From positions 32,001 to 96,000 of IMG/VR virus record IMGVR_UViG_3300029288_000086: a stretch of DNA of 64,000 nt. One strand, written 5' to 3'. Under the pieces are notes generated by a model that saw only the letters and a list, made by a program, of their open reading frames with translations, was not told where the DNA came from and did not search any database. This DNA is from a virus (Duplodnaviria; Caudoviricetes). The stretch's first letter is position 1; each line of letters opens with the position of its first letter. The translations under genes were made by a program, and so were the position numbers. Shown one piece after another: positions 1,388 through 24,166 of the stretch.

Positions 1388-1723
1388 ATGAAACATATTT
1401 ATGATTGTACATATACGTATCAATTGGCAAGAAAGAAATTGTTTGGCACAAGGAAAGACAGTTATTGGGGATATATTAAACCGGCATATGTGGATGAATT
1501 GATTGTATCGGACTTCTTTAGAAATCAATTAAAAGATGTAGGCGATAAACATCAAAACGGAGATGATTGGTATTTAGACTATACAATTACCGAAGTAGAA
1601 GTTAGATATAAAATTGCTGATGAATTATATAGTTTTTCTGGGTTATCTTCCAATTTATCTGCCGGAGATTTCTTAGAGTATTGTAAAGATCATATGATTA
1701 CATCAGTAATTATTACTACATGA
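1388..1723 (+). CDS. hypothetical protein
   Basis: AAGGA RBS; stop codon lies inside site 1719. Confidence 0.7.
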   Translation: MKHIYDCTYTYQLARKKLFGTRKDSYWGYIKPAYVDELIVSDFFRNQLKDVGDKHQNGDDWYLDYTITEVEVRYKIADELYSFSGLSSNLSAGDFLEYCKDHMITSVIITT

Positions 1724-1752
1724 AACTGCCATTTCATTGAAAGGAGGAATTA

Positions 1753-2508
1753 TTGAGATTAAACGACAATATAGTTATAAAACAATGCGATTGTATGGAA
1801 ACAATGAAATTAATTCCTGACAATTATGTTGATATGGTATTATGTGATTTGCCGTATGGAACAACTTCAAACAAATGGGATTCAATTTTGCCCATAAATG
1901 ATTTGTGGACACAATATAAACGGATTTGTAAAGATAATGCGATTATAGCTCTTACTGCATCTCAACCGTTTACGTCAATGTTGGTAATGAGCAACTTAGA
2001 AATGTACAAACATGAATGGATTTGGATTAAAAATAGAGGAAGTAATTTCGCAAATACAGTAAGAGAACCAATGAAGGAACATGAATCTGTTTTAATTTTC
2101 AGTAAAGGAAAGTGGACTTATAATAAACAGATGCAAGAAAGAACTGGATCTGGTCTTAGTAGAATGAAATATGATTTCAACACAGTTACAAAATCAGAAA
2201 ATTATAGGGAGTTTGAAAGACCACCGTCTGGTGGTGGAGAATTACGTGTTCCTTCTAGTTGGCAAAAGTTTAATACTGAAGTGGGTTTGCACCCAACACA
2301 AAAACCCGTTGCATTATTTGAATATTTAATTAAGACTTACACGAATGAGAATGAAGTTGTTTTGGATAATTGCGCAGGAAGTTTCACAAGTGGAGTTGCC
2401 TGTATAAATTTAAATAGAAAATATATTGGGTATGAGTTAGATGAAAAATACTTTGAAATTGGTAAAAATAGACTTTTAAAAGCTTTAAATACAAAAAATA
2501 CCCCATGA
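1753..2508 (+). CDS. DNA methyltransferase (N4C/N6A, beta class)
   Basis: CDLPYG motif IV, HPTQKP, VLDNCAGS motif I, GYELD; AAGGAGG RBS with TTG start. Confidence 0.93.
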   Translation: MRLNDNIVIKQCDCMETMKLIPDNYVDMVLCDLPYGTTSNKWDSILPINDLWTQYKRICKDNAIIALTASQPFTSMLVMSNLEMYKHEWIWIKNRGSNFANTVREPMKEHESVLIFSKGKWTYNKQMQERTGSGLSRMKYDFNTVTKSENYREFERPPSGGGELRVPSSWQKFNTEVGLHPTQKPVALFEYLIKTYTNENEVVLDNCAGSFTSGVACINLNRKYIGYELDEKYFEIGKNRLLKALNTKNTP

Positions 2509-2607
2509 AACAGATATTTCATGCACTTTAATATGAAATTAATTGCATGTTCGGGTATAAAATAGGGTTTATTATGCAAGATATTGCATGTTAAGAAGGA
2601 GAAAATA

Positions 2608-2769
2608 ATGGAGGAGAATTGGATTTATAATCCTATGTTAAAACAATTCATATTTTTCAAAGGATTAAGAATTTTTATTTATAAGAATTGGAATAAGTAT
2701 TATCATCAATTCCAAGGGTATCAATGGGAAATTGGGTTTGGTCACATTGCAATCGCTTGGTACAAATAA
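2608..2769 (+). CDS. hypothetical protein
   Basis: AAGGAG RBS before ATG 2608. Confidence 0.55.
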   Translation: MEENWIYNPMLKQFIFFKGLRIFIYKNWNKYYHQFQGYQWEIGFGHIAIAWYK

Positions 2770-2792
2770 TCAAATATAAAAAGGAGAATAAA

Positions 2793-3068
2793 ATGCAAGA
2801 TAGTAAATATGTAATTATGTTAGTAAAAGACGGAGTTGCCTTTTGGAGTAAGAATGAACATGGTTGGGTAAATTTGACATGTGCAACCGTATATAACAAA
2901 GAAGAAGTTGATGCTAAATCTGATAGGCCAATGCTTGGAAGATTTGTAGAACTACCTGCCTATAATGGTAATATTAATGTAACAATCAATGGTTATTCTG
3001 TTCCTTCTGCAAAAGATGTTGCTGATGCTATTGTTAAAACTCTCAGAACCCAAGGCGTTACTAGATAA
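2793..3068 (+). CDS. hypothetical protein
   Basis: AAGGAG RBS before ATG 2793. Confidence 0.65.
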   Translation: MQDSKYVIMLVKDGVAFWSKNEHGWVNLTCATVYNKEEVDAKSDRPMLGRFVELPAYNGNINVTINGYSVPSAKDVADAIVKTLRTQGVTR

Positions 3069-3127
3069 TAACTTCCCCATAAAACGAAAATTTCATGGGA
3101 AATAATTAATAAAGAAAGGAGGATTTT

Positions 3128-3313
3128 ATGCCTACATATATCGTAACTACGGAACATTTGTATACTGAACGAGTAAGAATTGAAGCAGAAAACGAGGAAG
3201 ACGCATTAGAAGCTGTATATCAAGGTGATGGAGAAACTATAGAAGGATCATTAAATTATAGTGAATTTAATCCATTGGATAATGCTTCTGAATGGGATAT
3301 TGAGGAAGAGTAA
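3128..3313 (+). CDS. hypothetical acidic protein
   Basis: AAGGAGG RBS; flanked by sites 3078 and 3320. Confidence 0.75.
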   Translation: MPTYIVTTEHLYTERVRIEAENEEDALEAVYQGDGETIEGSLNYSEFNPLDNASEWDIEEE

Positions 3314-3387
3314 ATACCCCATGAAACAAGAGTTTTATTGACGTGACAGCGCCTATATTTATATCTGAGATCAGAAAGGATTATAAT

Positions 3388-3633
3388 ATGACAAAACGAA
3401 TTTTGCATTTACAAATTCCGATGATGGACACAAAAGCTCCAATTAGAGACGCTTTTAGAGTTAGTCCAGAAACAGCAGGAAAGTTTGTTTCTTTAGTAAA
3501 AGAAAAACTTGGAGATGATTGGATTGTAATTATGTCGCCATTTGATCCAACAATTTCTGAGGACGGTCAAACATTTTATAACTTTAAAATGGAACAACTT
3601 ACAAAAGATGAACTGATTAAATTAATTCAATAA
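3388..3633 (+). CDS. hypothetical protein
   Basis: AAAGGA RBS before ATG 3388. Confidence 0.65.
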   Translation: MTKRILHLQIPMMDTKAPIRDAFRVSPETAGKFVSLVKEKLGDDWIVIMSPFDPTISEDGQTFYNFKMEQLTKDELIKLIQ

Positions 3634-3798
3634 ATATTTCTATGCCTTAGCACAAGGGTAGCCGTATTGATGAAGGAGATGGGGTCGCCATAGGGAATGC
3701 AGGACGACAAGTTGTAAGGGAAATTTGCTGACAAGATCGGCACAAAATAAATGTCCGAATATGTGCCACTTAATAAAATATACGCAAAGGAGAATCCT

Positions 3799-3921: not shown

Positions 3922-3953
3922 TAATATTAATAAAATTGATACCACCAAAACCC

Positions 3954-3982
3954 TTGACAAAATCGGGATTGTGTGGTATAAA
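3954..3982 (+). promoter_or_regulatory. sigma70/SigA-type promoter for the RNA cluster
   Basis: TTGACA-17 bp-TATAAA with extended -10 TG. Confidence 0.85.
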
Positions 3983-4214: not shown

Positions 4215-4216
4215 AT

Positions 4217-4288
4217 AACGGGTTAGAGTAGTGGTTCACTCAGGAGCCTCATAAGCTTCGCACACATGTTAGAATCATGTGCCCGCTA
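4217..4288 (+). tRNA. tRNA with CAT anticodon (Met-like, divergent)
   Basis: Cloverleaf: D stem GAGT/ACTC, anticodon loop CTCATAA, T arm ACATG-TTAGAAT-CATGT; one acceptor-stem mismatch. Confidence 0.7.
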
Positions 4289-4431
4289 TTTGCACTAGAT
4301 ATCTAGTGCATAACTAATCCTGTACCCTTGAATGAGGCGACGGGGCAAGTCCTTATCTAATCATAAAACTCGGATTAAAGATCAGCAGGATTCCTCGATA
4401 TAAAAGGGTAAGAGAATAAGAGGAAAAATTT

Positions 4432-4506
4432 GTACCCTTAGCTCAGTTGGTCTAGAGCAAGCGGCTCATAACCGCTGGGTCACAGGTTCAAGTCCTGTAG
4501 GGTACA
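4432..4506 (+). tRNA. tRNA with CAT anticodon (Ile2-like)
   Basis: Perfect cloverleaf GTACCCT/AGGGTAC, AGCGG-CTCATAA-CCGCT, GGTTCAAGTCC; C4:G69 and C5:G68 as in lysidine tRNA-Ile. Confidence 0.92.
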
Positions 4507-4507
4507 C

Positions 4508-4973: not shown

Positions 4974-5102
4974 AAAAATAGTCTATCAAATATAATAACA
5001 ACAGGAGGTGAAAAATCCACGCTACCCCATGAAAGCATTATTTTATGCACCATATTTTTTGCAACACAAAATTTTAGTAAGTTTATAGATAAAGGAGATT
5101 AA

Positions 5103-6014
5103 ATGAGTTTTAGTTTTACTAAGGCAACAAAAGGCAAAAAGCCTGTTAGAATTGTTATTGGTGGGCCAAGTGGCTCCGGCAAGACGTACACATCCCTGAC
5201 TTTCGCACAATATCTTGAAAATATCACAAAGAAACCAACCGCCGTTATTGACACTGAGCATTATCGTGCCAGCCTTTATGCGGATAAGTTTGGTTTTGAG
5301 GTAAACAATTGGGAACCCCCATTTGATCCTCGTGAGCTTATCAAGGCTATTCACGAAGTAGAACAAGCGGGATTTGGTCAACTTATTGTTGATAGTAGCA
5401 CCCATTTCTATTCTGGGCAAGGTGGATTGCTCGAAATTGTTTCAGACGCAGCAAAGACGCGCTATGGTGGAAATCAGTATGCTGGATGGGCAGTTGGTAC
5501 ACCCGTACAAAATGACTTGGTAGATACCATTATTCGATCACCATTGCATATCATTTTCTGCACGAGGGCAAAACAAGCCTACGAGGAAACTGAAAAGAAT
5601 GGCAAGAAAACATATGAAAAAACCGGTATGGAACTTCAACAGAGGGATGGCTTTGAGTATGACTTCGATTTCTCGTTGATGATGGATATGGATAACAATG
5701 CTGTTGTTGCTAAAGGTATGGGGCTTGTAACTCTCGGAATGTATATCAAAAAACCTGATTACAAGACCATTGAAAATATTCTGAAGTCCATTAATGATAA
5801 CGCCACTGAAAATTCAATTTCTCCGGTGCGAATCGGTGAATTGCAAAAACAAATTATTGGTGTTTGTAAAGAACTTGGTGGAAAAACAAATACAAAGTTG
5901 ATGGAAACTTTGGAAAAATATACTCCAGATAAGAATCCAGAGCATATTGATGATGAATCCAAATTGGTTGAACTATTGGCTGAAGTTGAGAACTTGAAAA
6001 AGGAGAAAAAGTAA
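5103..6014 (+). CDS. AAA ATPase, Sak4-like recombination protein
   Basis: Walker A GPSGSGKT, VIDTE, LIVDS, FEYDFD; directly upstream of SSB. Confidence 0.85.
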   Translation: MSFSFTKATKGKKPVRIVIGGPSGSGKTYTSLTFAQYLENITKKPTAVIDTEHYRASLYADKFGFEVNNWEPPFDPRELIKAIHEVEQAGFGQLIVDSSTHFYSGQGGLLEIVSDAAKTRYGGNQYAGWAVGTPVQNDLVDTIIRSPLHIIFCTRAKQAYEETEKNGKKTYEKTGMELQQRDGFEYDFDFSLMMDMDNNAVVAKGMGLVTLGMYIKKPDYKTIENILKSINDNATENSISPVRIGELQKQIIGVCKELGGKTNTKLMETLEKYTPDKNPEHIDDESKLVELLAEVENLKKEKK

Positions 6015-6489: not shown

Positions 6490-8454
6490 ATGCTGATTGA
6501 TAAAGATTTAATCGTTGAAGCAAAAAAAACATTGGGTGAAGAAGCAGCAAATATTATAAAAAATGATCTCGATTTACAAAATTGGGATGATAAAAATTTG
6601 AAATCTCTCTGCCCGTTCCACGAGGAGGACACGGGAAGTTTTATTTGGAATCACAAAGATAATGCCTTCAAATGTTTTGGATGTGGCGTCCATTATAATA
6701 TTGTAGATCATTACATGCAATTTAATCGTCTAACTTTTATTGGTGCAATTCAAAAATTATTTGAACAAACTGAAACAAAGTATTCTTTTGGCGAGCAAGG
6801 TGTAAAAACTGAAAAATATTATAAATATCCTTTTTATGATCATTCAGAAGATAGATCGAAAGTAGAGGATTATTTAAAATTAAGACATATTTCTAATACA
6901 ACGCTAGATTTGACAGATGTTCAACAAAGCAATGATGGCAATATCGTATTTAATTATTATGATACCAATGATGTATTGACATTAGTGAAATATCGTCCTG
7001 CAAAACAAGTCAAAAAAGGCGATACTAAAACATGGTGTCAACAAGATGCAGATTCTATGCCATTGTTATTTAATATGAATCGCATTGATTTTACTAATGG
7101 GCCACTATTGATATGCGAAGGAGAAATAGACTGTCTTTCCGCCATTGAAGCCGGATATAAGAATGCAGTTAGTGTTCCTTTAGGGGCCAATAATTATGGG
7201 TGGATAGAAGCTTCGTGGGATTGGCTAGAACTATTCGATAGAATTATTATATGGTCAGATAATGACGAAGCCGGATTAAAAATGAGAAAAGAAGTATGTT
7301 CTCGTTTGGGCGTATGGCGTACTTTGTATGTAGATATGCCAATCCTCTTGGACAAAGATGGAAGTGAAATAAAAATTAATGATGCAGATGGAAAAAAGAG
7401 AGGCGTAAAAGATATTAATGAAGTTCTTTATTATTGTGGAAAACAAAAGGTTCTAGATTTAATTACCGAAGCAAAAGAATTGCCCATTGAAGGTATTGAG
7501 GACTTATCATCAGTTGAACCTTTTGATATAGAATTAGCGCCAGGATTATATTCTGGATTAGAGCCAATAGATAAAACTATTTATAAATTTTTATTTGGTA
7601 GTGTCATTGTTGTGACAGGTCTCAGGGGGGCAGGCAAGTCCACATTGCTTAACCAATGTTTTGTGTGTGAACCATTAGAGCAAGGATATGATACTTTTAT
7701 TTTTAGTGGCGAATTAAGTTCCCCAGTATTGCAAAGTTGGGTAGAATTATCTATGGCTGGCCCCGAACAAGTTAAGATGAAAACAGAACACATTCATGTT
7801 ATCAATGCAGATGCAATGAAACAAATGAAAGAGTGGTATCATGGAAGAACATGGACATATAACCAGACCGACAACAAATTAGAATCAATTCTAGACAAAG
7901 CAGTTAGCGTTACTAGAAAATATGGTGTTAAAATTTGGCTTTTAGATAATTTATCAACTATTGATATTGGTGCCAATGATAATAACCTTTTAGAGAAACA
8001 AAAAAATGTTATTGTGGAATTAATTAAACATGCAAAAACCTACAATGTCTTAATCATTCTTGTTATTCATCCACGCAAATTACAAGCAGGAACCGTAGAC
8101 ATTGTTTCAGATGATGTTGGTGGAAATGGCGCACTTACTAATTTAGCGCAATATGTTATTTCCGTAAAAAGATTTTCCCAAAAAGATAAAGCCGGAGAAA
8201 GGGATGGAAAAGGGAATTGGAAAAAGGGGAAAGAGCCTATTTCAGAAGACGTTGAAGTAAATATTTTAAAAAATCGTTATACGGGAAAAATAGAAGCACA
8301 TAAATTGTTTTTCAATTACAAATCTTACAGATTTTTTTCTAACGCAAGAGAATTATTTAAAAGATATGGATGGGATAAAAATAGGAATCGTCCTATTCCA
8401 ACATTAGAAAGTGAAGATCCAAGATTTGCTTCACCAGATTTTATGAAGGATTAA
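6490..8454 (+). CDS. primase-helicase (Zn finger, TOPRIM, SF4 helicase)
   Basis: CPFH..C..C Zn finger, CEGEID and DNDEAG TOPRIM, GLRGAGKS Walker A, LDNL, HPRK, KNR. Confidence 0.93.
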   Translation: MLIDKDLIVEAKKTLGEEAANIIKNDLDLQNWDDKNLKSLCPFHEEDTGSFIWNHKDNAFKCFGCGVHYNIVDHYMQFNRLTFIGAIQKLFEQTETKYSFGEQGVKTEKYYKYPFYDHSEDRSKVEDYLKLRHISNTTLDLTDVQQSNDGNIVFNYYDTNDVLTLVKYRPAKQVKKGDTKTWCQQDADSMPLLFNMNRIDFTNGPLLICEGEIDCLSAIEAGYKNAVSVPLGANNYGWIEASWDWLELFDRIIIWSDNDEAGLKMRKEVCSRLGVWRTLYVDMPILLDKDGSEIKINDADGKKRGVKDINEVLYYCGKQKVLDLITEAKELPIEGIEDLSSVEPFDIELAPGLYSGLEPIDKTIYKFLFGSVIVVTGLRGAGKSTLLNQCFVCEPLEQGYDTFIFSGELSSPVLQSWVELSMAGPEQVKMKTEHIHVINADAMKQMKEWYHGRTWTYNQTDNKLESILDKAVSVTRKYGVKIWLLDNLSTIDIGANDNNLLEKQKNVIVELIKHAKTYNVLIILVIHPRKLQAGTVDIVSDDVGGNGALTNLAQYVISVKRFSQKDKAGERDGKGNWKKGKEPISEDVEVNILKNRYTGKIEAHKLFFNYKSYRFFSNARELFKRYGWDKNRNRPIPTLESEDPRFASPDFMKD

Positions 8455-8455
8455 A

Positions 8456-11400
8456 ATGAATAATTATATCAATTATCATTCGCATACATCTATGTCGAAC
8501 ATTAGCACTCCAGATAGCGTGATTTCTAATCGAGATCGCGCTATACGTGCTTCTGAATTAAAACAAACAGTTTTGAGCGGCGTGGAACATGGGTGGATGG
8601 GCAAAGTAATTGAAACAATAGAATTATCAAAGGAATTTAATATCAAACCTTTATTGGGTTCTGAAGTTTATGCCGTTAAAAATAGATTTGAAAAAGATAA
8701 AACAAATGCACATCTTATTTTATTAGCGAAAAATGAAAATGGAAGAAAGTCAATCAATAGACTTTTGAGCGAATCAAATGTATCGGGCTTTTATTATAAG
8801 GCAAGATGTGATTTTGAATTATTGTTCAATCTGCCTAAAAATGATGTTTGGGTTACTACGGCTTGTATTGCTGGGTTCCCATGGAAATACGAAGATTCAG
8901 AAAATATAATTGAACAACTATTAGACCACTTTGAAAATAATTTATTTTTAGAAGTACAAAATCATCATACAGATTCACAAAAAATATTAAATAAAAGAAT
9001 CGTTGAATTATCCAATCGTTATCATATTCCACTTATTGCAGGGATGGATAGTCATATGATATATCCTAACCAAGCACAAGAACGAGATGACTATTTATTG
9101 TCTCGCGGTATTGAATATCCAGATGAACAAAACTGGTTTTTAGATTTTCCTTCTTATGAAGAAGCACTACAAAGATTCAAAGACCAAGGTGTTTTGAATG
9201 ATGTAAAAATTGAAGAAGCATTAGATAATACCAATATATTCAATGATGTTAAAGAATATAATTCTATTGTTTTTAATCCCGATATTATTAAACTGCCTAC
9301 TTTATATCCTAATCATAAGCAAGAAGATAAAAATAAAATTCTTGAAACATTAGTTTGGTCTAAATGGGAACAAGAAAAAAACAACATTTTTTCAAGTCAG
9401 CATGCTTATTATGAGGGCGAAATTAGGAAAGAATTAGACACTATTTTCGAAACTAATATGGCTGATTATTTTTTGCTTGATTACGAAGTTATTAAAAAAG
9501 GCAAAGAAATGGGCGGACAAATCACACTAACGGGGCGCGGATCTGCTGTCAGCTTCTATATTTCTAAACTTTTAGATTTTACCACAGTAGACAGAATTGC
9601 GGCGAGTGTCAAATTGTTTCCAGAAAGATTTATTTCCGCAGAGCGATTGTTAGAAACTAAAAGCCTACCCGACATAGACTTTAATTTAGGTAATCCAGAA
9701 GTTTTTGTAAAAGCACAAGAAATTATTATTGGCGAAGGACATAGCTATCCAATGATTGCTTTTGGAACCGTGAAAGCATCTGGAGCATGGAAGTTATTTT
9801 CAAGAATTTCTAACATAGATTTTGATACTGCAAACGATGTTTCAATGCAACTACAAAAATATGACATGGATTTGAAACATGCCGAAAGCGAAGAAGAAAA
9901 AGAATCTCTTGATGTTTTAGATTATATTGAACCTAAATACCATAATATTTTCAATGAAAGCAAAAAATATTTAGGATTAGTGAATTCATTAACTCCCCAT
10001 CCTTGTGCAACACTTCTCTTCAATAATGGAGATATTCGTGAGGAATTTGGTTTAATAAAAATCAAGACAGGCAACGTAGAGCATATTTGTGCGTGTTGTG
10101 ATGGTTTATTTGCAGAAAACTATAAGTTGCTAAAAAATGATTTACTTAAAGTTAATGTTGTAAAATTAATTTATGGCGTATACGAGAGAATTAATTTATG
10201 CCCACATACTATCCCCGAATTATTGAAAGTATGCGAAAATGATAAATCAGTATGGGATGTTTACGCCAATGGTTGGACAAAAGGAATCAATCAATTTGAG
10301 CAAACAGGCACAAGAGGTAGAGCCACTAAATATAAGCCTCACAATATTTCAGAACTTTCGGCTTTTGTCGCTGCCGTAAGACCTGGTTTCAAATCAAATT
10401 ATGATGCTTTTGAAAGCAGGCAAGCATTTGAGTATGGCGTAAAATCTCTTGATGAGTTGATTCAAACAAAAGAATTCCCATATAGTTTTATGATTTATCA
10501 AGAAAACGCTATGCAGGTAATGGCATATGCTGGAATTCCTATCGCCAAAACTTATGAAATTATTAAAAATATCGCTAAAAAACGTGTCGAAAAAGTAAAA
10601 AAATATAAAGATCAATTTATTACTGGAATGAAAAAAAAATTAGTTGATGATGAAAATCTCAACGCCGAAGAAGCAAAAAAAGTTGCTTTAATGACATGGC
10701 AAATTATTGATGATTCTAGCAGATATTCCTTCAACAGTGCGCATGCATATAGTGTAGCGGGAGACTCATTATATGGCGCATATTTGAAGTCGCATTATCC
10801 CCTGGAATTTTATGAAGTATTTTTAAACATTCTTGAAGAAGATGGAGATAAAAACAGGCTATCAGAAGTAAAAATAGAAGCACAAGAAGCATATGGGATA
10901 AAATTTCCTTCACTAAAATTTGGTCAAGATAATCGTAAAATTGTAGCCAATGCTGCTACAAAAGAAATTAATCAATCTATGCAAATTTTAAAAGGTTTTG
11001 GAAATACGGTTGGAGAAAAATTTTATAACCTATCTCTTGATTTTCTCGGCAATGATTTTCTTGAGTTGCTAGTCTATGCGGAAGAAAGTGGATACATGTC
11101 TGCCAAATGGGACAAGCTCATTAAAATTAATTATTTTGATAAATTTGGGAGCAATGGAAAATTATATGAGATTTATAAAGAATTCACAGATGGTGAAAAT
11201 AAATATCAAAAAACTTATGTTGAAAAAACAAAAATAAAAAGATTAGAAACACTAAAAGAAATATGGAATAATTTACCCAATAAAAAAATTCCGTTTAATC
11301 AACAGTTGAAAAATGAATTTGAAATATTGGGAACCATTCAATCTATTTATCCTGAATTAAATAAAAAATATAAAGAAGAAAAATTCCCAACTAAATATTA

Positions 11401-11695
11401 TTATATTAAAGACTTAAATCTTACTTACGCTCCACGGCTAGAATGTTATAATTTGGCTAAAGGAACACAAGGCTCAATTAAAATGTATAAAGCAACGTAC
11501 AACAACAAGCCTTTTTCTGTGGGCGCAATCATAAAATTAAAACAAGGATGGTATGAAGAAAAACCAAACACAAAACCAAACATTAACAATGTTTTTGTTC
11601 CAGATGGAACTGGAACACATTATATTATAAGCAAGTTTGAGTTAGTTACACCAGAAGAATTAGACAAAATATTAGAGGAAAAAACAAATGCCTGA
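8456..11695 (+). CDS. dnaE: DNA polymerase III alpha subunit
   Basis: PHP domain HSH, GRGSA, PDIDF catalytic motif, FNSAHAYS, YLKSHYP. Confidence 0.95.
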   Translation: MNNYINYHSHTSMSNISTPDSVISNRDRAIRASELKQTVLSGVEHGWMGKVIETIELSKEFNIKPLLGSEVYAVKNRFEKDKTNAHLILLAKNENGRKSINRLLSESNVSGFYYKARCDFELLFNLPKNDVWVTTACIAGFPWKYEDSENIIEQLLDHFENNLFLEVQNHHTDSQKILNKRIVELSNRYHIPLIAGMDSHMIYPNQAQERDDYLLSRGIEYPDEQNWFLDFPSYEEALQRFKDQGVLNDVKIEEALDNTNIFNDVKEYNSIVFNPDIIKLPTLYPNHKQEDKNKILETLVWSKWEQEKNNIFSSQHAYYEGEIRKELDTIFETNMADYFLLDYEVIKKGKEMGGQITLTGRGSAVSFYISKLLDFTTVDRIAASVKLFPERFISAERLLETKSLPDIDFNLGNPEVFVKAQEIIIGEGHSYPMIAFGTVKASGAWKLFSRISNIDFDTANDVSMQLQKYDMDLKHAESEEEKESLDVLDYIEPKYHNIFNESKKYLGLVNSLTPHPCATLLFNNGDIREEFGLIKIKTGNVEHICACCDGLFAENYKLLKNDLLKVNVVKLIYGVYERINLCPHTIPELLKVCENDKSVWDVYANGWTKGINQFEQTGTRGRATKYKPHNISELSAFVAAVRPGFKSNYDAFESRQAFEYGVKSLDELIQTKEFPYSFMIYQENAMQVMAYAGIPIAKTYEIIKNIAKKRVEKVKKYKDQFITGMKKKLVDDENLNAEEAKKVALMTWQIIDDSSRYSFNSAHAYSVAGDSLYGAYLKSHYPLEFYEVFLNILEEDGDKNRLSEVKIEAQEAYGIKFPSLKFGQDNRKIVANAATKEINQSMQILKGFGNTVGEKFYNLSLDFLGNDFLELLVYAEESGYMSAKWDKLIKINYFDKFGSNGKLYEIYKEFTDGENKYQKTYVEKTKIKRLETLKEIWNNLPNKKIPFNQQLKNEFEILGTIQSIYPELNKKYKEEKFPTKYYYIKDLNLTYAPRLECYNLAKGTQGSIKMYKATYNNKPFSVGAIIKLKQGWYEEKPNTKPNINNVFVPDGTGTHYIISKFELVTPEELDKILEEKTNA

Positions 11696-12374: not shown

Positions 12375-12423
12375 CCCCATGAAATGGTATTTTCATGTGG
12401 TACTAAAAATAAAAAGGAAAAAA

Positions 12424-12702: not shown

Positions 12703-12747
12703 TCACCATAAAATGAAGTTTTCATGGGATAGAGAAAAAGGATAATT

Positions 12748-12942: not shown

Positions 12943-12991
12943 ATATAACCCCATGAAATCAAACTTTCATTGGATATAGAAAGGAATAATA

Positions 12992-13279
12992 ATGGCATCA
13001 ATATCTTGTGGAGCAGAAACAGATGATATTTTAGATTCAATCTTTGATATATGTATGGACTATACAAAAACGCCTCAAGAAAGAAAAAAGAAAATTTATG
13101 ATGATGTTGTTGGGAAATTAGTATCTTCTTATAATTCAGCAGATCAAATAAGCGAATTTCTTGACAAAGAAGGTGGAGAAGAATGGGAAAGAGCACAAGA
13201 TGAAATGCGTGACAGAGGTAGTTATGGATGGGCGCGTATGGTAATACAAATGATTAAAAATATGCGAGAAGATAATTAA
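12992..13279 (+). CDS. hypothetical protein
   Basis: RBS; flanked by sites 12952 and 13283. Confidence 0.7.
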   Translation: MASISCGAETDDILDSIFDICMDYTKTPQERKKKIYDDVVGKLVSSYNSADQISEFLDKEGGEEWERAQDEMRDRGSYGWARMVIQMIKNMREDN

Positions 13280-13328
13280 CCCTATGAAATAAATGTTTTA
13301 TTGAATTAAATATAAAAAAGGAAAATTT

Positions 13329-14806: not shown

Positions 14807-15004
14807 TTTGAAATATAAGGCGATGAAGCATCTATTTGAAGATATGAATTATCTTGTTAGTTTAGGTTTTGCAGAATATGTTGCTGATCCAAAAACTGGA
14901 GAAGATGGTTGGCGAATCAATCCAAAAGGCATGGAACTTCTTGAGAATTATCAAGAAAGCACTCATCCCACTCCATGAAATTGAAGTTTCATGGTAATTG
15001 GGTA

Positions 15005-15033
15005 TTGACAAGATAAAGAAAATATGATATAAA
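15005..15033 (+). promoter_or_regulatory. sigma70-type promoter
   Basis: TTGACA-17 bp-TATAAA with TG; 11 bp downstream of site 14974. Confidence 0.75.
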
Positions 15034-15053
15034 TATTACAAGATAGGATAAAA

Positions 15054-15311
15054 ATGGATGTACAAATTAAAAAAGATAATGTTTTTATTGGGATACCAAT
15101 GAAAAATAGAAGATTTGTTGTAGATAAAGAAACTCTGAATACAATATTATCAGACAACGGATTCCAAGAAACATTTTACCTTAATATAAAAAATTTAGGA
15201 AATGAATTATTTTCTATTTATTTTCAAGATAAAAAAGATGTCCCTTTTGATAGGAATAATATTTATTTTCCTGGACACGATAATATAAATATCGAAAGAA
15301 AACTAACATGA
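15054..15311 (+). CDS. hypothetical protein
   Basis: RBS; stop inside site 15307. Confidence 0.65.
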   Translation: MDVQIKKDNVFIGIPMKNRRFVVDKETLNTILSDNGFQETFYLNIKNLGNELFSIYFQDKKDVPFDRNNIYFPGHDNINIERKLT

Positions 15312-15326
15312 AATGGAGATTTCATA

Positions 15327-15548
15327 ATGATAAATACTAGTCAATTTGAAGAAATAAATAAGATTACCGACCCCATAGATGCAGCTAAAAGATATCTCCG
15401 TGCTGTTTCTTTGTTTAGAGACAATTGTGAAACCGACATAAATGAAATAATTTTTGACGATTTAGCATATCGCTTTACAGAAAAATGGGCTGAGATTGTT
15501 TCTAAATTACCCAATGAAAGCGCAATTTCATTGGAGGATAATGGATAA
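15327..15548 (+). CDS. hypothetical protein
   Basis: GGAG RBS lies in the spacer of site 15307; reads through site 15513. Confidence 0.6.
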   Translation: MINTSQFEEINKITDPIDAAKRYLRAVSLFRDNCETDINEIIFDDLAYRFTEKWAEIVSKLPNESAISLEDNG

Positions 15549-15732
15549 AAAATATTGCACAAATTGTATACTAAATTGTAGTAATAAGGCAAATGTTATT
15601 GCTTGTAGTGGGCCAGTTTATAGAGAAAAAGAAGAAATATTAAATGGTTGGAGATTCAGGCATAATAAGAAATTTTATTTTTATTGTCCATCACAAAATG
15701 AATTGATTAAATTAGATTCTATGGAGTAAATT

Positions 15733-15975
15733 ATGGTAAACAATTATTACAAATGGACAGACGAACATATCCAAGAATTAAAAACGAAAGCAAAAAATCT
15801 TGATGGATATATTCTCTACTCTTTATACTGTAACGCATTAGATGAATTATTGTCACTAGCAAAAGAAACTAGTGTCATGTATGATAATCGAAGAGAATTT
15901 GAAGAAAAATATCGCAATTTATATAACATATTAGAAAAAGTTCAAGACGAAATAAATGATAACTTTCAACAATAA
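15733..15975 (+). CDS. hypothetical protein
   Basis: GGAG RBS; stop inside site 15971. Confidence 0.65.
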   Translation: MVNNYYKWTDEHIQELKTKAKNLDGYILYSLYCNALDELLSLAKETSVMYDNRREFEEKYRNLYNILEKVQDEINDNFQQ

Positions 15976-15999
15976 AACTATTATTTCATGAGGTAAAAT

Positions 16000-16272
16000 A
16001 TGACAAAATGTTCTGCAATTATTCAGTTTGGTGATGATTATGGCGATAATCATTGCACATTTCATTGTCAGTTAGATGAAGGTCATTCAGACGAACATTT
16101 AGAAATTGGTAATATGTATGGGGTTCCTTATCGCCTAGAATGGGTTGGTGATATGACGGAAAAGGAAATTGATGAATCTGGATTGAGTTTGATTAAAGAA
16201 GAAGATAGAGATGAATTGCCTACTGTTATGGAAGACGCAATGATGAAGGCAATAAGAAATAAAAGCACATAA
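16000..16272 (+). CDS. hypothetical protein
   Basis: GAGG RBS; flanked by sites 15971 and 16268. Confidence 0.7.
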   Translation: MTKCSAIIQFGDDYGDNHCTFHCQLDEGHSDEHLEIGNMYGVPYRLEWVGDMTEKEIDESGLSLIKEEDRDELPTVMEDAMMKAIRNKST

Positions 16273-16295
16273 AACGACCATTTCATGAGGATAAT

Positions 16296-17381: not shown

Positions 17382-17851
17382 TAAGAATAATCGAAGATGA
17401 TATTTTCAATTCACCCATAAACACCATTATTTGCCATCAAGTAAATTGCCAAGGTGTCATGGGAAGCGGTATTGCTAAGGAAATTAAATCTCGTTATCCG
17501 TCCGTATATGAACAATATAAATCTTTTTGTGGCAGTTTAGATAGAAAGTACCTTTTAGGAATGGGACATTTGTCCATAGACAATCGCACCAATAGAGTTA
17601 TTGGAAATTTATTTGGGCAAGATGGTTATGGGAAAGGGTTGCAAACAGATTATTTTGCTTTACAATCTGCTCTCGGAGATGTAAAGAAATTTGCAAAAGA
17701 TCATCACCTCCTTGTCGCTATACCGTTCGGTATAGGGCGTGGTTTTGGAGGTGGAGATTGGAATATTGTGTATAAAATAATAGAAACCGTTTTTGAAGAT
17801 TATGACAATGTTGTTATTTATAAGCTACCAGATGAAACACGCATTTCATGA
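17378..17851 (+). CDS. macro domain protein (ADP-ribose processing)
   Basis: ICHQVNCQGVMGSGIA, NLFGQ, IG.G.GGGDW. Confidence 0.9.
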   Translation: MIRIIEDDIFNSPINTIICHQVNCQGVMGSGIAKEIKSRYPSVYEQYKSFCGSLDRKYLLGMGHLSIDNRTNRVIGNLFGQDGYGKGLQTDYFALQSALGDVKKFAKDHHLLVAIPFGIGRGFGGGDWNIVYKIIETVFEDYDNVVIYKLPDETRIS

Positions 17852-18340: not shown

Positions 18341-18673
18341 GTGAAAACTAAATTTAAATTAGCAGGAAGTTCAGCCAACGTGGTTTTACGTGATGGAAAA
18401 ATATTTTATGATAGAAAGTATGCAGATGATTATTTAGTTTGCGAACAAGCCGAAACATCAAATGTTTTCTCTTTTCAAGAACATTTTTTGCCCATGATAA
18501 AAAAGACCACACAATCCTCTTCATTTGAAGACGGCAGATATCATGTTTATTTTACGGGAACGGTTGTTTGGAACGGTGGGCATAATAGTGAAAGCGGAAT
18601 CTGGGAGGGTTGGGATAAACCAGAATTAGATTATGTGCATTGGAAAAAACTAAATGACACCATGAAAGAATAG
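18341..18673 (+). CDS. hypothetical protein
   Basis: Coupled; stop in the spacer of site 18661. Confidence 0.6.
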   Translation: MKTKFKLAGSSANVVLRDGKIFYDRKYADDYLVCEQAETSNVFSFQEHFLPMIKKTTQSSSFEDGRYHVYFTGTVVWNGGHNSESGIWEGWDKPELDYVHWKKLNDTMKE

Positions 18674-18697
18674 TTTCATGGGCCTAAAAGGAGAAGA

Positions 18698-18938: not shown

Positions 18939-19014
18939 GGGACGTTAGCGCAATTGGTAGAGCACTCGCCTCCAAAGCGAATGGTTAGGGGTTCAAGTCC
19001 TCTACGTCCCGCCA
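18939..19014 (+). tRNA. tRNA-Trp (CCA)
   Basis: GGGACGT/ACGTCCC acceptor, loop CTCCAAA, GGTTCAAGTCC, G73 and encoded CCA. Confidence 0.92.
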
Positions 19015-19167
19015 AAGGAATAATATGGCAAATATAGAAATAATTTTATTTTGTTTCGTTGTTGTCTTAATAACGATAGTTTTATTGTGTTTAGTGGCCG
19101 AGATATTGAATAAACTTACCATGAAATGAGGGTTTATGGGGTATAATATAAATATAAAAGGAGCATT

Positions 19168-19704
19168 ATGAAAGCATTCAATCCAGAAGAACATATGATT
19201 TTTAATGGCATTATTGGAAGTAGATTATATGGAACAAATAGCGAAACTTCAGATACTGATTTTCGTGGAATTTGTCTTCCGACATTAAAAGTCTTGCTTG
19301 ATCCATTCAATCGTTTCGAGCAAAAAGACTCAGGCTTTAACGAAGATGACCGTGTAATTTATTCATTAGATAAGTTTATTAAATTGTGTGCAGATTCAAA
19401 TCCGAACATTCAAGAACTCTTGTTTGTTCCAGAATCAAAAACTTTATTTAAAACTAAACAATGGGATTTGATTTTAGAAAATAGACACTTGTTTTTAAGC
19501 AAGAAAGCGAAGCATACTTTCCTTGGGTACTCCTGGGCACAAATTCAAAAAGCTAAAGTTCACCGCAAATGGTTTTTAGATCCACCAAAAGAAAAACCAA
19601 CAAGAAAAATGTTTGGATTAACAGATTCTCCAATTATTTCGGGAGAAGGCTTACAGGCGGCATCTAATATTAGATTTGATTTATTTACAGAATCTTTGCC
19701 GTAG
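19168..19704 (+). pseudogene. RlaP/YcgL-like Pol-beta nucleotidyltransferase, apparently 3'-truncated
   Basis: GSRLYGTNSETSDTDFRG, NPNIQELLF, FLGY motifs; ends abruptly overlapping the CCA fragment. Confidence 0.65.
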
Positions 19705-20725
19705 AGATTTTACTATTAATGCAATGGCATATAATGAAGACGAAGGTTTGATTGATCCGTTTGATGGGCTACAAGATATAGAAAATCATCTTATTAAATG
19801 CGTAGGAAAAGCGAACGATAGATTTCGAGAAGATGCATTAAGAATGCTTCGTGCGATAAGATTTTCCGCGCAATTGGGGTTTTCTATAGAAGAAGAAACA
19901 GAATCATACATCATAAATAACTGTAATTTAATTGCAAATGTATCATCAGAAAGAATTAATGCTGAAATTTGTAAAATACTAATATCAAATCACCCTGAAA
20001 AAATAGCATCAATATATCTTAATAATTTATCAAAACATTTTCTTCCAGAACTTGATGCGTTGTTTTCTTGTGAACAAAATACGCCTTGGCACATCTATAA
20101 TGTAGGAATTCATACTCTTGAAGCACTAAAAAACAGTAAAAATGATTTAGTACTGAGATTAGCAATATTATTCCACGACATAGGTAAGCCTTCCTCCAAA
20201 ACCACAACACCCGAAGGGATAGATCATTTTTATCATCATCCAATAAAATCAGCAGAAATAGCAAAAGAGACAATGACAAGGTTACATTTCGATAATAAAA
20301 CTATTGAGGATGTCGTAACTTTAGTTTCTTATCACGATGCAACGATAGATACAAATAAACGTTCTATCAAAAGAATGTTAAATAAAATTGGCGAAGAATT
20401 GTTTTTCAAATTGCTTGATTTGCAATACGCAGATTGTAGTGCTCAAAATCTAGAATTGTCAATAGAAAAAATAAATTTATTGCCAAAAATCAGAAAAATG
20501 GCACAAGAAATTTTGACAGAAAAAGAACCGTTTGGCATAAAGGATCTTGCAATTAATGGAAACGACATGATGGCACTAGGCTACAAACCCAACAAAGAAT
20601 TAGGCAATGCTTTATCAACAATTTTGGAATTGGTTATTGATGATTCAACCTTAAACACAAAAAATCAATTACAAGAAATTGCTTCAAAACTCTTGACAGA
20701 TTCAACAAACTGTGGTAAACTTTAA
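19676..20725 (+). pseudogene. CCA-adding enzyme/poly(A) polymerase with HD domain, lacking the N-terminal catalytic head
   Basis: Begins at RRDFTINAMA; has EDALRMLRAIRF, SSERI, HDIGK; no GG.VRD/D.D motif and no convincing RBS. Confidence 0.75.
20693..20721 (+). promoter_or_regulatory. sigma70-type promoter
   Basis: TTGACA-17 bp-TAAACT with TGTG. Confidence 0.8.
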
Positions 20726-21231: not shown

Positions 21232-21254
21232 ATACACAATGAAAGGAATATTTC

Positions 21255-21674
21255 ATGGGACTTAAAAAATTATCACAAGACTTAATTAATAATATGTATT
21301 TTGATTATGATGACGGACAAGAAATTATAGAAGAAACGGCATTAGCTGCGTTATTGCAATCAGAAATAGCATTTTGCTATCCGCAACCAAATAAGTCAAA
21401 AGAAGATGAATCTGTTATAGCATTGGGCGTAAATTGCAATGATATATTTTGGTGGGGTTGTGCAGATTTGGAGCTTTTTAATTATTCTGAAATTCAATCT
21501 TTGTATGAATCATCTTTTGATAAAGAGGGAAATGAAAAACCATGGGGATCAATTATTTGGTCTTGTTTGCATAGAAAAATGAGACCGCAACACCCAGTTG
21601 AAGATATGATGAAAAAGCAAGGATTTTGGACTAATGATTTAGAAGCACTACCTGTTCGTGTGAATACTGGATAG
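21255..21674 (+). CDS. hypothetical protein
   Basis: Start codon is the ATG of site 21238; ends just before site 21679. Confidence 0.7.
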   Translation: MGLKKLSQDLINNMYFDYDDGQEIIEETALAALLQSEIAFCYPQPNKSKEDESVIALGVNCNDIFWWGCADLELFNYSEIQSLYESSFDKEGNEKPWGSIIWSCLHRKMRPQHPVEDMMKKQGFWTNDLEALPVRVNTG

Positions 21675-21770
21675 TCTCCATGAAAGAGTCATTTCATGGG
21701 ACAATGACCACTGTATATAGTGGTAGTATGACAGATATGGTAGAAGATATGAAGGCAATGAAAGGATAAT

Positions 21771-22151
21771 ATGAATTTTTTACAAAAAATATTAAAAAGA
21801 GAAGAATATAGAGCAATAAGAGAATATGATGAAAAAGAAAGAGTTGCTGCTCACAATCAACTAATGTCAGAATTATCTTTATTAGAAAATCCAGAATTTA
21901 GATTCGACAATATAAAAATATTGTTAGATTATGAAAATTCGCCAGAATATAAACTAATTGAACTAAAAAGAAAATATTTAAGATTGGTGAAAAGAATTTG
22001 CATTTTTAATAATATTCCTATAGAAAATAAAGATACTGTTGGAAATATTAATTCAAAATTATCAAAAATTTACTCAAAATTAAATGTTCCGGGAAATACA
22101 ACATTAAAAAAATATGTTGAATTGTTATCAGAAATAAATAATAGCATATAA
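21771..22151 (+). CDS. hypothetical protein
   Basis: RBS. Confidence 0.6.
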   Translation: MNFLQKILKREEYRAIREYDEKERVAAHNQLMSELSLLENPEFRFDNIKILLDYENSPEYKLIELKRKYLRLVKRICIFNNIPIENKDTVGNINSKLSKIYSKLNVPGNTTLKKYVELLSEINNSI

Positions 22152-22162
22152 GGGAACAAATT

Positions 22163-22381
22163 ATGATAATAAAATATTTTTGTGATTGTGGAAAAGAATT
22201 AAATTTTGATCAATTTGAATATGACGACTACCCTAAGACTATTTTTTGTGGATGTGGGTCTAAATACGATAAAGGATTTTGTGAAGAATGTGGGCATTTT
22301 CATGTTGACCAAATGTATGTTGCTCCAAAAGAAACTATGCAACAGCAAAAAGATGGTCAGCATCATAATGTGGTTATATAG
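22163..22381 (+). CDS. Cys-rich hypothetical protein
   Basis: CDCG, CGCG, CEECG. Confidence 0.6.
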   Translation: MIIKYFCDCGKELNFDQFEYDDYPKTIFCGCGSKYDKGFCEECGHFHVDQMYVAPKETMQQQKDGQHHNVVI

Positions 22382-22466
22382 GATTCACAGGGTTTTAAAA
22401 TGGTTGTTTATTATTCTAATCGTAATTATTATTTTGGAAATGATAAATATATTTTAAGGAGACGAT

Positions 22467-22682
22467 ATGAATAAGATTTATAGCGTTGATAAGAATACTA
22501 GCGTTGGAGAATTTTGCTCAGGAATATTTATTGATCTGTTTTCAGCAATACAACACGCAAAACATATTTCTAAAACTGAAGGAAATATAACATATGTTTA
22601 TCAACATATTCTCAAAAACAAAGAATATGTCCCTGATGGAATGATTTTTGATTCAAGTACTTTTGAATCAGAACCAGAATAG
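22467..22682 (+). CDS. hypothetical protein
   Basis: AAGGAG RBS. Confidence 0.65.
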   Translation: MNKIYSVDKNTSVGEFCSGIFIDLFSAIQHAKHISKTEGNITYVYQHILKNKEYVPDGMIFDSSTFESEPE

Positions 22683-22691
22683 GAGAAAAAT

Positions 22692-22874
22692 ATGTATGTA
22701 AAAAAATTTGATAAAATGGGAATAGATGAATTTACAACATTATCATTTCCTTCAGAAAAAGAACTGCTGAATTTTCTAGAAAATAATCCCAATTATGCGT
22801 TACACTGGGATAATGAATATTTATGGGAATTAAATAAAATTTATGTTAATGGTTGGGAAGATCCACGCCCATAG
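22692..22874 (+). CDS. hypothetical protein
   Basis: AGGAG RBS; stop inside site 22870. Confidence 0.65.
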   Translation: MYVKKFDKMGIDEFTTLSFPSEKELLNFLENNPNYALHWDNEYLWELNKIYVNGWEDPRP

Positions 22875-22908
22875 AACAAGTATTTCATGATATAAAATAA
22901 GGATAAAT

Positions 22909-23319
22909 ATGAAAAAAATTGAAAATATAATTAAATTTATGATAGATGCACACGGAGATCAAAAATATGGCAATTTGCCATTTTGTGTTCATCCCCTGTT
23001 GGTTTCAAGACATTTTGAAGATAATACTTTAAAAACTGTAGCATTATTACATGATGTGATTGAAGACACTCCATATTCTTTTGAAGATATTCGAAATTTA
23101 TTTGGCGAAGAAATTGCTATTGCAGTCGATGCTATTTCACGAAGAGATGATGAAAAATATTTAGAAGACTACATCCCAAGAGTAGCCAAAAACGCATTAG
23201 CCAAACAAGTAAAAATTGCAGATTTACAAGAGAATATTCATAGTGCTAAATTTTGTTATTTGGGATATGAAAAATTAATTCCTAGATATGAAAAGGCATT
23301 AAGAATTTTACAATCATAA
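22909..23319 (+). CDS. HD-domain hydrolase, small alarmone hydrolase (Mesh1/SpoT-like)
   Basis: AHGDQ, P..HP, ALLHDVIEDT, VKIADLQEN. Confidence 0.85.
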   Translation: MKKIENIIKFMIDAHGDQKYGNLPFCVHPLLVSRHFEDNTLKTVALLHDVIEDTPYSFEDIRNLFGEEIAIAVDAISRRDDEKYLEDYIPRVAKNALAKQVKIADLQENIHSAKFCYLGYEKLIPRYEKALRILQS

Positions 23320-23361
23320 TACCATGAAATAAGGATTTTATTGGTCTGGAAGGAGAAATAA

Positions 23362-24135
23362 TTGAAACTTAAAGATATAGCAAAAGAATCGTATTATCAT
23401 GAAAAAGGTGGAATGCTTTTAAAAGGTGATTGTTTAGATTGGATGCCGAAATTACCAGACAAGTCTATTGACATGATATTATGTGATTTACCTTACGGTA
23501 CAACAAAATGTCGTTGGGATACAATTATCCCACTAGATAAATTATGGTTGCAATATAATAGAATTATAAAAGATAATGGATCTATATGTTTGTTTGCTCA
23601 ACTTCCTTTCGATAAAGTTCTTGGATGTAGCAATTTGGAAATGTTACGATATGAATGGGTATGGGAAAAGGAACAAGGAACAGGGAATTTGAATGCCAAT
23701 AAAATGCCTTTAAAAAAGACTGAAAATATTCTTGTTTTCTATAAAAAGTTACCTTTATATAATCCTCAAAAAACCATTGGAAGACCATATGAAATTGAAA
23801 GAGAATATAATGATAACGAAATATTTGGGAAAACAGGAACAAGAGATGGATATATTACTAAGAATGATGGTTTTAGATATCCAACAAATATTTTAAAGTT
23901 TAATCGAGAACTGAAGAACAGATTACATCCAACGCAAAAACCAGTATTATTACTTGAGTATTTAATCAAAACTTATACTAATGAAAATGAAATTGTCTTA
24001 GATAATACGGCAGGATCGTGTGGTGTGGCAATTGCCTCTAAAAACATTAATCGTAAATGGATTTGTATTGAGAAAGATCAAAAGTATTGTGATGTTTCTA
24101 TAGACAGAATTAAGAATTGGACAATAACCCCATGA
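23362..24135 (+). CDS. DNA methyltransferase (beta class)
   Basis: CDLPYG, HPTQKP, VLDNTAGS; paralog of 1753..2508. Confidence 0.93.
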   Translation: MKLKDIAKESYYHEKGGMLLKGDCLDWMPKLPDKSIDMILCDLPYGTTKCRWDTIIPLDKLWLQYNRIIKDNGSICLFAQLPFDKVLGCSNLEMLRYEWVWEKEQGTGNLNANKMPLKKTENILVFYKKLPLYNPQKTIGRPYEIEREYNDNEIFGKTGTRDGYITKNDGFRYPTNILKFNRELKNRLHPTQKPVLLLEYLIKTYTNENEIVLDNTAGSCGVAIASKNINRKWICIEKDQKYCDVSIDRIKNWTITP

Positions 24136-24166
24136 AATGCAAATTTTATTAAAAGGAGAATGAATA

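Follow-up and report, generated by a model that had tools for sequence, protein, structure and literature searches.

Palindromic sites with position-specific centres at accessory-gene junctions of an SPbeta-related phage, possible addresses for cassette exchange

The accessory genes of the virus represented by the IMG/VR record IMGVR_UViG_3300029288_000086 (Duplodnaviria; Caudoviricetes) are separated by numerous copies of a short palindromic site. Comparison with related phages shows that these sites stay with the map position and not with the gene: copies at the same place retain an identical central hexanucleotide beside unrelated flanks, and the gene cassettes between them are moved or replaced. 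The stretch analyzed here (hereafter, the window) comprises 64,000 nt and corresponds to bases 32001-96000 of a 143,090-bp phage contig; the positions below are window coordinates unless marked as genome coordinates. With a probability of roughly 0.45, we interpret the sites as addressed crossover points for cassette exchange, the crossovers being made by a phage recombinase, a reading derived from sequence comparison. The shuffling of single accessory genes by phages at a fixed genome order is an old open question of modular evolution. In this phage, the joints can be seen directly, there are many of them and each bears its own label, and the cargo includes methyltransferases (MTases) that protect against host restriction.

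The phage, with a G+C content of 32%, is a distant relative of Bacillus phage SPbeta, as indicated by tblastn matches to the terminase (32% identity), YonG, the YonO-type RNA polymerase and tail proteins, as well as to the YomM-like tyrosine recombinase and the Pol III alpha polymerase. In the window, genes are encoded on the + strand up to ~32 kb and on the - strand beyond that point.

A repeated palindromic site at gene junctions

The consensus of the site is (T/A)ACCCC-ATGAAA-N6-TTTCAT-(G/T)G. The exact pattern ATGAAA-N(3-9)-TTTCAT occurs in the window 16 times versus 0.41 expected, and a weight-matrix scan identifies 29 sites with a 6-nt centre (N6) in the window and 96 in the genome, compared to at most one in shuffled sequences. 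The 89 copies in the genome that have no more than one arm mismatch contain 88 different centres. The centre is 6 nt long in all but a few copies, with CCCCATGAAA-N6-TTTCATGGGG representing two ~11-bp arms around a spacer; the centres are never palindromic, and their first base favours T and the last one A. With the flanks included, the ~10-6-10 layout is the geometry of dif-type tyrosine-recombinase core sites. In all sites, the C-rich flank lies upstream relative to the genes, and the sole good copy in the region of - strand genes is inverted to match. The density of the sites is high in two arms of small genes and low among the structural genes.

A pattern scan of IMG/VR turned up other contigs with dense arrays; five other phage records each contain 24-94 copies of the motif, against 0-1 copies of a reversed control pattern. 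The site array is a trait of the whole phage group, of which the window is one instance. Two relatives, denoted A (G001; 160 kb, rated complete) and B, share with the phage patches at 65-93% nucleotide identity. Another contig (L066) is a second assembly of the phage itself, 100% identical and free of variants.

The variation among the arms is informative with respect to the form in which the sites are recognized. The arms are perfect in 45 sites, 37 have a variant in a single arm, and one has a compensating double variant; the single-arm variants consist of one G>A or C>T change that spoils or weakens a G-C pair. Because these changes are not accompanied by compensating pairs, the sites are unlikely to act as hairpins. 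This pattern bears directly on the possibility that the site is an RNA element, namely, a hairpin that would terminate, stabilise or direct the processing of each message at its 3' end. Co-orientation of the sites with transcription, their location immediately 3' of stop codons and the ability of the arms to pair, CCCAUGAAA with UUUCAUGGG, are all in line with such a role. We nevertheless hold it to be very improbable, given the single-arm changes, and also because no T-run follows the sites and the + strand terminator-like matches do not fall on them, because the version of the site found in SPbeta (see below) would be a 5-bp all-A/U stem, and because there is no reason for a hairpin loop to be kept letter for letter between phages. 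The variation fits, instead, two half-sites on duplex DNA that would be read by a protein dimer. The arms are conserved in ~90 copies, yet other lineages have other arms, so some trans-acting protein must read them. Neither a sigma-70 promoter nor a terminator was detected within the site, and the region is not enriched for either (116 promoter-like matches, with the sites not among them, vs 97.6 +/- 10.3 in shuffles).

Conserved centres beside exchanged genes

In relative A, at least 34 of the 63 sites in the compared loci have centres identical to those of the phage and arranged in the same order, with ~1.3 such identities expected by chance; this is a lower bound, given that the full site list of relative A includes further matches. 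In 39 aligned pairs of same-centre sites, where the identity of the centre is 100% by choice of the pairs, the arms are 74-100% identical, and immediately to the left of the site, the identity drops to the background level of 20-45%. To the right, a leader of 10-30 nt is often kept before the gene differs, and in many pairs, both flanks are unrelated. The five centres ttgaag, tggaga, gcgcaa, ctatta and cgacca (14975-16286) are kept in order in both relatives, and all four intervening genes are unrelated; the centres gcgtca, ctgcca, cagata and cgaaaa (1342-3096) are likewise kept, again with no relation among the genes that they enclose. A run of seven cassettes shows conserved centres with a different gene in each interval. 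When IMG/VR was scanned for three single addresses, that is, sites with a particular centre, the matches beyond relatives A and B were AT-rich background.

The same association is seen when junctions are classified by the conservation of the adjoining genes. Sites are missing from all 10 junctions between two genes conserved in relative A; they mark 12 of the 31 junctions where only one of the two genes is conserved and 38 of the 72 where neither is (p=0.02 and p=0.002). Movement of a cassette is exemplified by gene g216 which, at 93% identity, lies one slot along in relative A, within catcta>tttcca instead of gaacga>catcta (genome 124967-126410 vs L008:5400-6345). This shift, together with the chimeric leader of the displaced gene, points to unequal exchange between adjoining junctions.

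Methyltransferases as single-gene units

The initial annotation singled out two DNA MTases and a hydrolase of the HD type as genes that each occupy a single interval between sites, and this holds: MTase1 lies exactly between sites 1720 and 2505, MTase2 exactly between 23324 and 24132, and the hydrolase between 22871 and 23324, its upstream site being degenerate (ATAGAA, two mismatches). MTase1 and MTase2 are 45% identical to each other. The MTase1 subfamily is widespread, with members that are 68-98% identical, some of them annotated in Proteobacteria, and MTase2 has relatives elsewhere at 60-80% identity. Having closer relatives elsewhere than each other, the two genes are independent acquisitions rather than duplicates that arose within the genome.

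As predicted for cassettes, the same gene is found at other positions and the same position with other genes. The MTase1 slot ctgcca>cagata is occupied by another small gene in relatives A and B, where 285 bp separate the two sites and the flanks show no homology. Contig L064 carries MTase1 in a 96%-identical copy that resides between other sites, a variant with a 4-nt centre upstream and a site with the centre tcaata downstream. Genes of the MTase2 type occupy two other map positions. An 80%-identical one (L267), located in a region syntenic with genome 129-131 kb, terminates within the site tcctga, and a 60%-identical one (PF01555; L268:1202-2030) fills the slot tatatc>tcttcg, which in the phage genome holds a C5-cytosine MTase (PF00145; genome 132540-133530; L269). 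Upstream of the tgcaaa site, relatives A and B both carry a third type of MTase, which has its own stop codon 42 nt before the site, and two more MTases of relative A form single-gene units at still other addresses.

The gene at L267:722-1474 is itself a chimera, with a body that shows 80% nucleotide identity to MTase2 and a 3' part with 77% identity to MTase1, which indicates that exchange also occurs within genes. A 79%-identical homologue of MTase1 on an unrelated contig of small genes (L065:2440-3290) is flanked by degenerate site-like sequences, ATAAAT gaagaa TTTCAT and ATGAAA taaaaa TTCTAT.

The initial annotation further suggested that genes were captured up to the site, so that homologues should show truncated or replaced tails. 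Replacement or alteration of the tails is indeed observed but is confined to the last 2-8 residues, and capture up to the site overstates the case, for no domain is truncated. In the alignments of both subfamilies, all members reach the same last conserved helix (with the invariant R240 in MTase1), beyond which 4-25 residues are variable, and homologues with and without sites end at the identical alignment column after that helix. MTases that precede a site end in ..TP or ..TQ, encoded by ACC CCA TGA or ACC CAA TGA. In the pair of MTase1 and its L064 copy, KALNTKNTP* stands against KLLEITQ*, so that the 7-residue tail in L064 is replaced, and both proteins end in the TGA of a site. The origin of such tails is illustrated by a third MTase-like gene (26298..27017), which has a 90%-identical orthologue in relative A that stops at the TGA of the site; in the phage, this site, at 26975, reads ACGAAA, with a T>C change in the TGA, and the frame runs on for 14 codons.

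Gene ends at the sites

The relation between sites and stop codons was checked against all + strand open reading frames (ORFs), and the initial description of sites at gene ends turned out to be correct. Twelve sites contain the stop codon (1720, 2505, 14975, 15308, 15972, 16269, 17832, 18662, 22871 and 24132, along with the degenerate 19121 and the minus-oriented 49973), mostly as a TGA or TAA that spans the second to fourth positions of the left arm. A further 13 sites have the stop 4-10 nt upstream, often as the TAA of TAACCCC (14 within about 10 nt had been counted previously), and three are read through (7825, 15514 and 26975). The site-encoded protein tails are real, ..NTP, ..ITP and ..PTP coming from ACC CCA TGA, ..RP from CCC ATA G, and ..MKE from ATG AAA GAA TAG. 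Of two start codons thought to be supplied by sites, the one at 21255 is indeed provided by the right arm, but the ATG at 25512 is doubtful and probably not a real start, there being an in-frame ATG at 25524 with a better GGAG ribosome-binding site. The next gene starts 10-45 nt after the site, behind a Shine-Dalgarno sequence, so the units between sites are promoterless and co-oriented, each consisting of a ribosome-binding site followed by an ORF, with no promoter enrichment.

The possibility that the site functions as a three-frame stop was rejected: only the frame of the arm is closed (97%), compared to 38% and 14% for the other two frames. The contact between sites and stop codons probably has two reasons, the tight packing of the genome and the stop that the left arm and its flank (ACC CCA TGA or TAA) provide in one frame; unrelated proteins thereby gain two or three site-encoded terminal residues. 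For annotation, this accounts for the ..TP and ..TQ ends that recur among the proteins and for the read-through extensions of a few of them.

This packing had been likened initially to that of integron cassettes. In true integron-like capture, a gene and the site at its 3' end would travel together and be inserted by an integrase at a common site. The promoterless, co-oriented units of ribosome-binding site, ORF and site, with the stop codon within the site, do behave as exchangeable, and there are extra genes that come with an extra site, for example, tcaaac with ORF 12992..13279. Capture as such is already contradicted by the data here, and we regard it as improbable in the extreme. The site is tied to the position, with the same gene found next to different sites and the same sites next to different genes, and in the only clear insertion, the additional site is on the 5' side of the additional gene. 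No attI or other common insertion site was found; the two PF00589 Xer-like proteins of the phage score 22.8 and 43.3 bits with integron-integrase models, against a cut-off of 265, and are not of the IntI type; and the sites, at 18-26 bp and with fixed arms, lack the folded-strand signature of attC.

An analogous array in SPbeta and its cultured relatives

When k-N-k palindromes were counted blindly in the SPbeta genome (NC_001884), 34 exact copies of TAAAA-N6-TTTTA were found versus 1.7 expected, often extended to TCTAGAaTAAAA-N6-TTTTAtcTAGA. The centres are varied, and many of the palindromes overlap or supply the TAA stop of the upstream gene (for example, those at 113664, 115044, 116415, 117535 and 118470; L001-L003). 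The centres gatcaa, tttgtc, tattcc, ttcaat, gtttta and ggatga are common to SPbeta, Goe11, SPR and phi3Ts, in this order, and at the edges of the sites, the identity between the flanks falls from ~97% to random. The mtbP MTase of SPbeta exactly fills the slot gatcaa>tttgtc, which in Goe11 contains an unrelated ORF, and phi3Ts has a second MTase in tatctc>gatcaa. The SPbeta array is thus analogous to that of the phage described here and behaves alike, providing an independent replicate in cultured phages. Given the shared architecture, the idea of addressed exchange is directly testable by genetics in SPbeta and its cultured relatives.

In the region compared, the laboratory hybrid Hyb1phi3Ts-SPbeta differs from phi3Ts by a 116-bp tandem duplication and has no junction at a site; the paper that describes the hybrid places 15 of 16 junctions in long homology and reports one non-homologous junction 'following yosA'. 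No description of the palindromes was found in the literature searched, which did not extend to the 1999 SPbeta genome paper.

A possible recombinase and a short-homology alternative

Under the reading that we prefer, the sites would be protein-recognized, dif-like elements of duplex DNA, with ~10-bp inverted arms and a 6-bp centre, that stand at accessory-gene junctions, each junction being distinguished by a centre of its own as its 'address'. Units of a ribosome-binding site and an ORF would be swapped between related phages by crossover in or at sites with the same centre, MTases being typical cargo; crossovers at same-centre sites would keep the map order and change the content of the slot. 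The crossovers could be made by a phage Xer-like tyrosine recombinase that would need matching centres, in the manner of heterospecific lox/FRT or pdif sites; it is the logic of these systems, fixed arms combined with distinct centres, that makes crossover at identical addresses the preferred reading. Two candidate enzymes are encoded in the genome, both with the R, K, HxxR, H/W and Y residues present and with PF00589 E-values of 7.6e-22 and 1.4e-20. The more specific proposal of a natural exchange system, in which a phage Xer-like tyrosine recombinase acts on ~90 heterospecific dif-like sites with the centres as slot addresses, is somewhat more tentative. If it is true, single accessory genes, such as those for MTases and other anti-defence functions, could be exchanged slot by slot between co-infecting relatives or with a resident one, with the gene order left unscrambled.

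Several observations weigh against exchange by a recombinase at addressed sites. The link between enzyme and sites is weak, with no enzyme tied to the sites. The YomM-like recombinase is also encoded by Lactococcus phage 949, the first 50 kb of which contain no palindrome array, so that its co-occurrence with arrays fails for this phage; the second recombinase has no orthologue in the array-bearing, 96%-complete record G005. Conservation breaks without a site in 19 of 31 cases, and 8 ends of BLAST segments lie near sites, compared to 2.5 for random genome positions but ~10 for random intergenic positions. Some breakpoints are located outside the core: the homology between MTase1 and its L064 copy extends from the ribosome-binding site to ~20 nt before the site, and the leader of the shifted g216 is a chimera of two leaders. 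Furthermore, the centres have drifted at junctions with conserved flanks (aagtca/gagtca/gaatca and caataa/cgataa), and a simple need for 18-26 bp of identity in exchange would likewise leave identical centres next to replaced flanks.

Such a requirement is part of an alternative for which the PeSL elements of T4-type phages provide a precedent (PMC2839356). The palindromes would be binding sites of a phage DNA-binding protein with another role, such as junction regulation, roadblock or silencing, and exchange would occur at the sole 18-26 bp of identity through short-homology recombination via a Sak4-like protein or host RecA. This scheme would accommodate the conservation of the arms without pairing covariation, which implies that some protein reads them, the breakpoints in a leader or gene tail and not in the core, the drift of the centres in the manner of neutral sequence, and the lack of a strict link between recombinases and arrays; moreover, the phage encodes a Sak4-like AAA_24 protein. 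We hold this main rival to be somewhat less likely than exchange by a recombinase, considering that the sites contain no sigma-70 promoter or terminator and the region is not enriched for them, that no regulatory role is evident for ~90 sites restricted to variable junctions, and that the 10-6-10 geometry, the fixed length of the centre and its non-palindromic sequence are those of tyrosine-recombinase core sites. In addition, ChAP-seq of the SPbeta protein MrpR recovered only the promoter regions with the SPBRE element, the sequence of which differs from that of the palindromes (PMC10516654).

Other features of the window and the genome

The coordinates of the sites and genes are given in Table 1. 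The motif copy at 7825-7842, the centre of which, gagtgg, duplicates that of the site at genome 122084, probably matches the consensus by chance. Directly after site 14975 lies a strong sigma-70-type promoter (14993-15040; TTGACA, 17 nt, TATAAA), which is kept in relative A; promoters of this kind also occur behind a few further sites.

Both ends of the contig are sites (genome 5-22, centre gatttg, and 143067-143084, centre ttagta). In the complete relative G001, these two addresses are 26 kb apart (76976 and 103186), which implies that the assembly broke at two sites and that the intervening stretch is missing. The window contains two tRNA-Met genes and one tRNA-Trp gene, the last of which is adjoined by genes for an RlaP-type nucleotidyltransferase and a CCA-adding/HD enzyme (4216-4507, 18939-19014 and 19168-20725). 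This block is flanked by sites and absent from relatives A and B. Paralogous HNH endonucleases (40-45% identity) occupy differing addresses in the phage and its relatives (window 25750-26301; L019:5466-5999 and 11096-11629; L055:10307-10861).

Table 1. Palindromic sites, methyltransferases and candidate enzymes of the phage (window coordinates unless marked genome)
Feature	Position	Strand	Remarks
Site, centre tcggca	532..549	+	
Site variant, 8-nt centre (N8)	808..827	+	
Site, centre gcgtca	1342..1359	+	same centre in relative A
Site, centre ctgcca	1720..1737	+	TGA is the stop of ORF 1388..1723; same centre in relative A, both flanks unrelated
MTase1, N6/N4 DNA methyltransferase, complete PF01555	1753..2508	+	ends ..NTP at TGA of next site
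Site, centre cagata	2505..2522	+	same centre in relative A, flanks unrelated
Site, centre cgaaaa	3079..3096	+	common to relative A
Site, centre caagag	3321..3338	+	common to relative A
Site, centre gcatta	5029..5046	+	gtgtta at the equivalent place in relative A
AAA_24 / Sak4-like single-strand annealing protein	5103..6014	+	candidate for the short-homology route
Motif copy with one mismatch	7825-7842		inside primase-helicase gene, read through
Site, centre tggtat	12379..12396	+	
Site, centre tgaagt	12708..12725	+	common to relative A; homology with relative A begins at left edge
Site, centre tcaaac	12953..12970	+	site and the gene 3' of it absent from relative A
Site, centre taaatg	13284..13301	+	common to relative A
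Five-site run (14975, 15308, 15514, 15972, 16269)	14975..16286	+	ttgaag, tggaga, gcgcaa, ctatta, cgacca
Site, centre cacgca	17832..17849	+	TGA at right edge is the stop of macro-domain ORF
Site, centre gaatag	18662..18679	+	upstream ORF ends ATG AAA GAA TAG, tail ..MKE
Degenerate site (ATGAAA tgaggg TTTATG)	19121..19138	+	3' of tRNA-Trp
Site, centre ggaata	21239..21256	+	right arm provides ATG of ORF 21255..21674
Site, centre gagtca	21680..21697	+	
Degenerate site (ATAGAA caagta TTTCAT)	22871..22888	+	TAG is the stop of ORF 22692..22874, tail ..RP
HD-type metal-dependent phosphohydrolase	22909..23319	+	single-gene unit
Site, centre taagga	23324..23341	+	
MTase2, N6/N4 DNA methyltransferase, complete PF01555	23362..24135	+	ends ..ITP at TGA of next site
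Site, centre tgcaaa	24132..24149	+	common to relatives A and B
Site, centre caataa	25496..25513	+	cgataa in relative A
Third MTase-like gene	26298..27017	+	reads through site 26975-26992
Site with left arm ACGAAA	26975-26992		read through
Site, centre gtgaca	28742..28759	not assigned	within block conserved with relative A
Site, centre tgttga	34682..34699	+	common to relative contigs A (G001) and L010
YomM-like Xer-like tyrosine recombinase	46243..47238	-	R, HxxR, W, Y present; candidate site-binding enzyme
Site in minus-strand late region	49973..49990	-	oriented with minus-strand genes
Second Xer-like tyrosine recombinase	genome 26867-27775		

Comparison with known systems

Heterospecific cassette exchange with lox or FRT sites is an engineered arrangement with a known enzyme and 13-8-13 sites. 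The likeness lies in the identical arms, in the differing spacers that bar cross-reaction, and in the in-place swap that two flanking sites allow; in contrast, the phage arrangement is natural, with a ~10-6-10 layout, tens of slots and a candidate enzyme. In integrons, attC travels with the gene and cassettes enter at one attI, and attC is a long imperfect palindrome recognized as a folded single strand. The phage units resemble integron cassettes in being promoterless, co-oriented and limited to a single gene, with a recombination-type site that touches the 3' end of the ORF; unlike attC, the phage sites stay at their map positions while the genes between them change, and the recombinases are not IntI.

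A close natural parallel in the arrangement of the site is offered by the pdif/dif modules of Acinetobacter Rep_3 plasmids that are served by XerC/XerD (PMC13141974, PMC6449649), with inverted arms and a 6-bp spacer, and with sites that bound modules found in different contexts. Two pdif sites with the same spacer, or nearly the same one, can react with each other (PMC13141974), and the comparative sequence pattern in the phages would fit a spacer-matched reaction. The differences are that pdif sites alternate in orientation around modules, whereas the phage sites are all oriented with the genes; that pdif relies on the host XerC/XerD, whereas the phage encodes Xer-like proteins of its own, in a candidate role; and that the ~90 sites of the phage keep to a fixed map order and hardly ever share a centre.

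The PeSL cassettes of T4-type phages (PMC2839356, PMC4122927) also involve short motifs repeated between small non-essential ORFs in plastic genome regions, at places where related phages differ by inserted, deleted or replaced ORFs, as is the case here. However, a PeSL combines a sigma-70 promoter with a terminator hairpin and recombines by homology, whereas the phage sites have no such signature and no pairing covariation, and the unique centre of each copy is conserved between phages.

Finally, SPbeta itself contains SPBRE, the operator of the recombinase-fold repressor MrpR/SroF (PMC10516654; bioRxiv 10.1101/2025.11.27.690993). Like the sites, SPBRE recurs between genes in this group of phages, and it is recognized by a protein of the tyrosine-recombinase fold. 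In SPbeta, ChAP-seq of MrpR detected only ten regions, all of them SPBRE-containing promoters (PMC10516654); upstream of the ten target genes, SPBRE has the sequence ACAAATACAAAWAATATGTAT and is located in the promoter spacer. Identity of the sites with SPBRE was rejected because both the sequence and the promoter-spacer context differ. SPBRE is present in ~10 copies, bound by a monomer and embedded in promoters, whereas the junction palindromes form a separate and more numerous class of elements, in SPbeta as well as in the phage described here.

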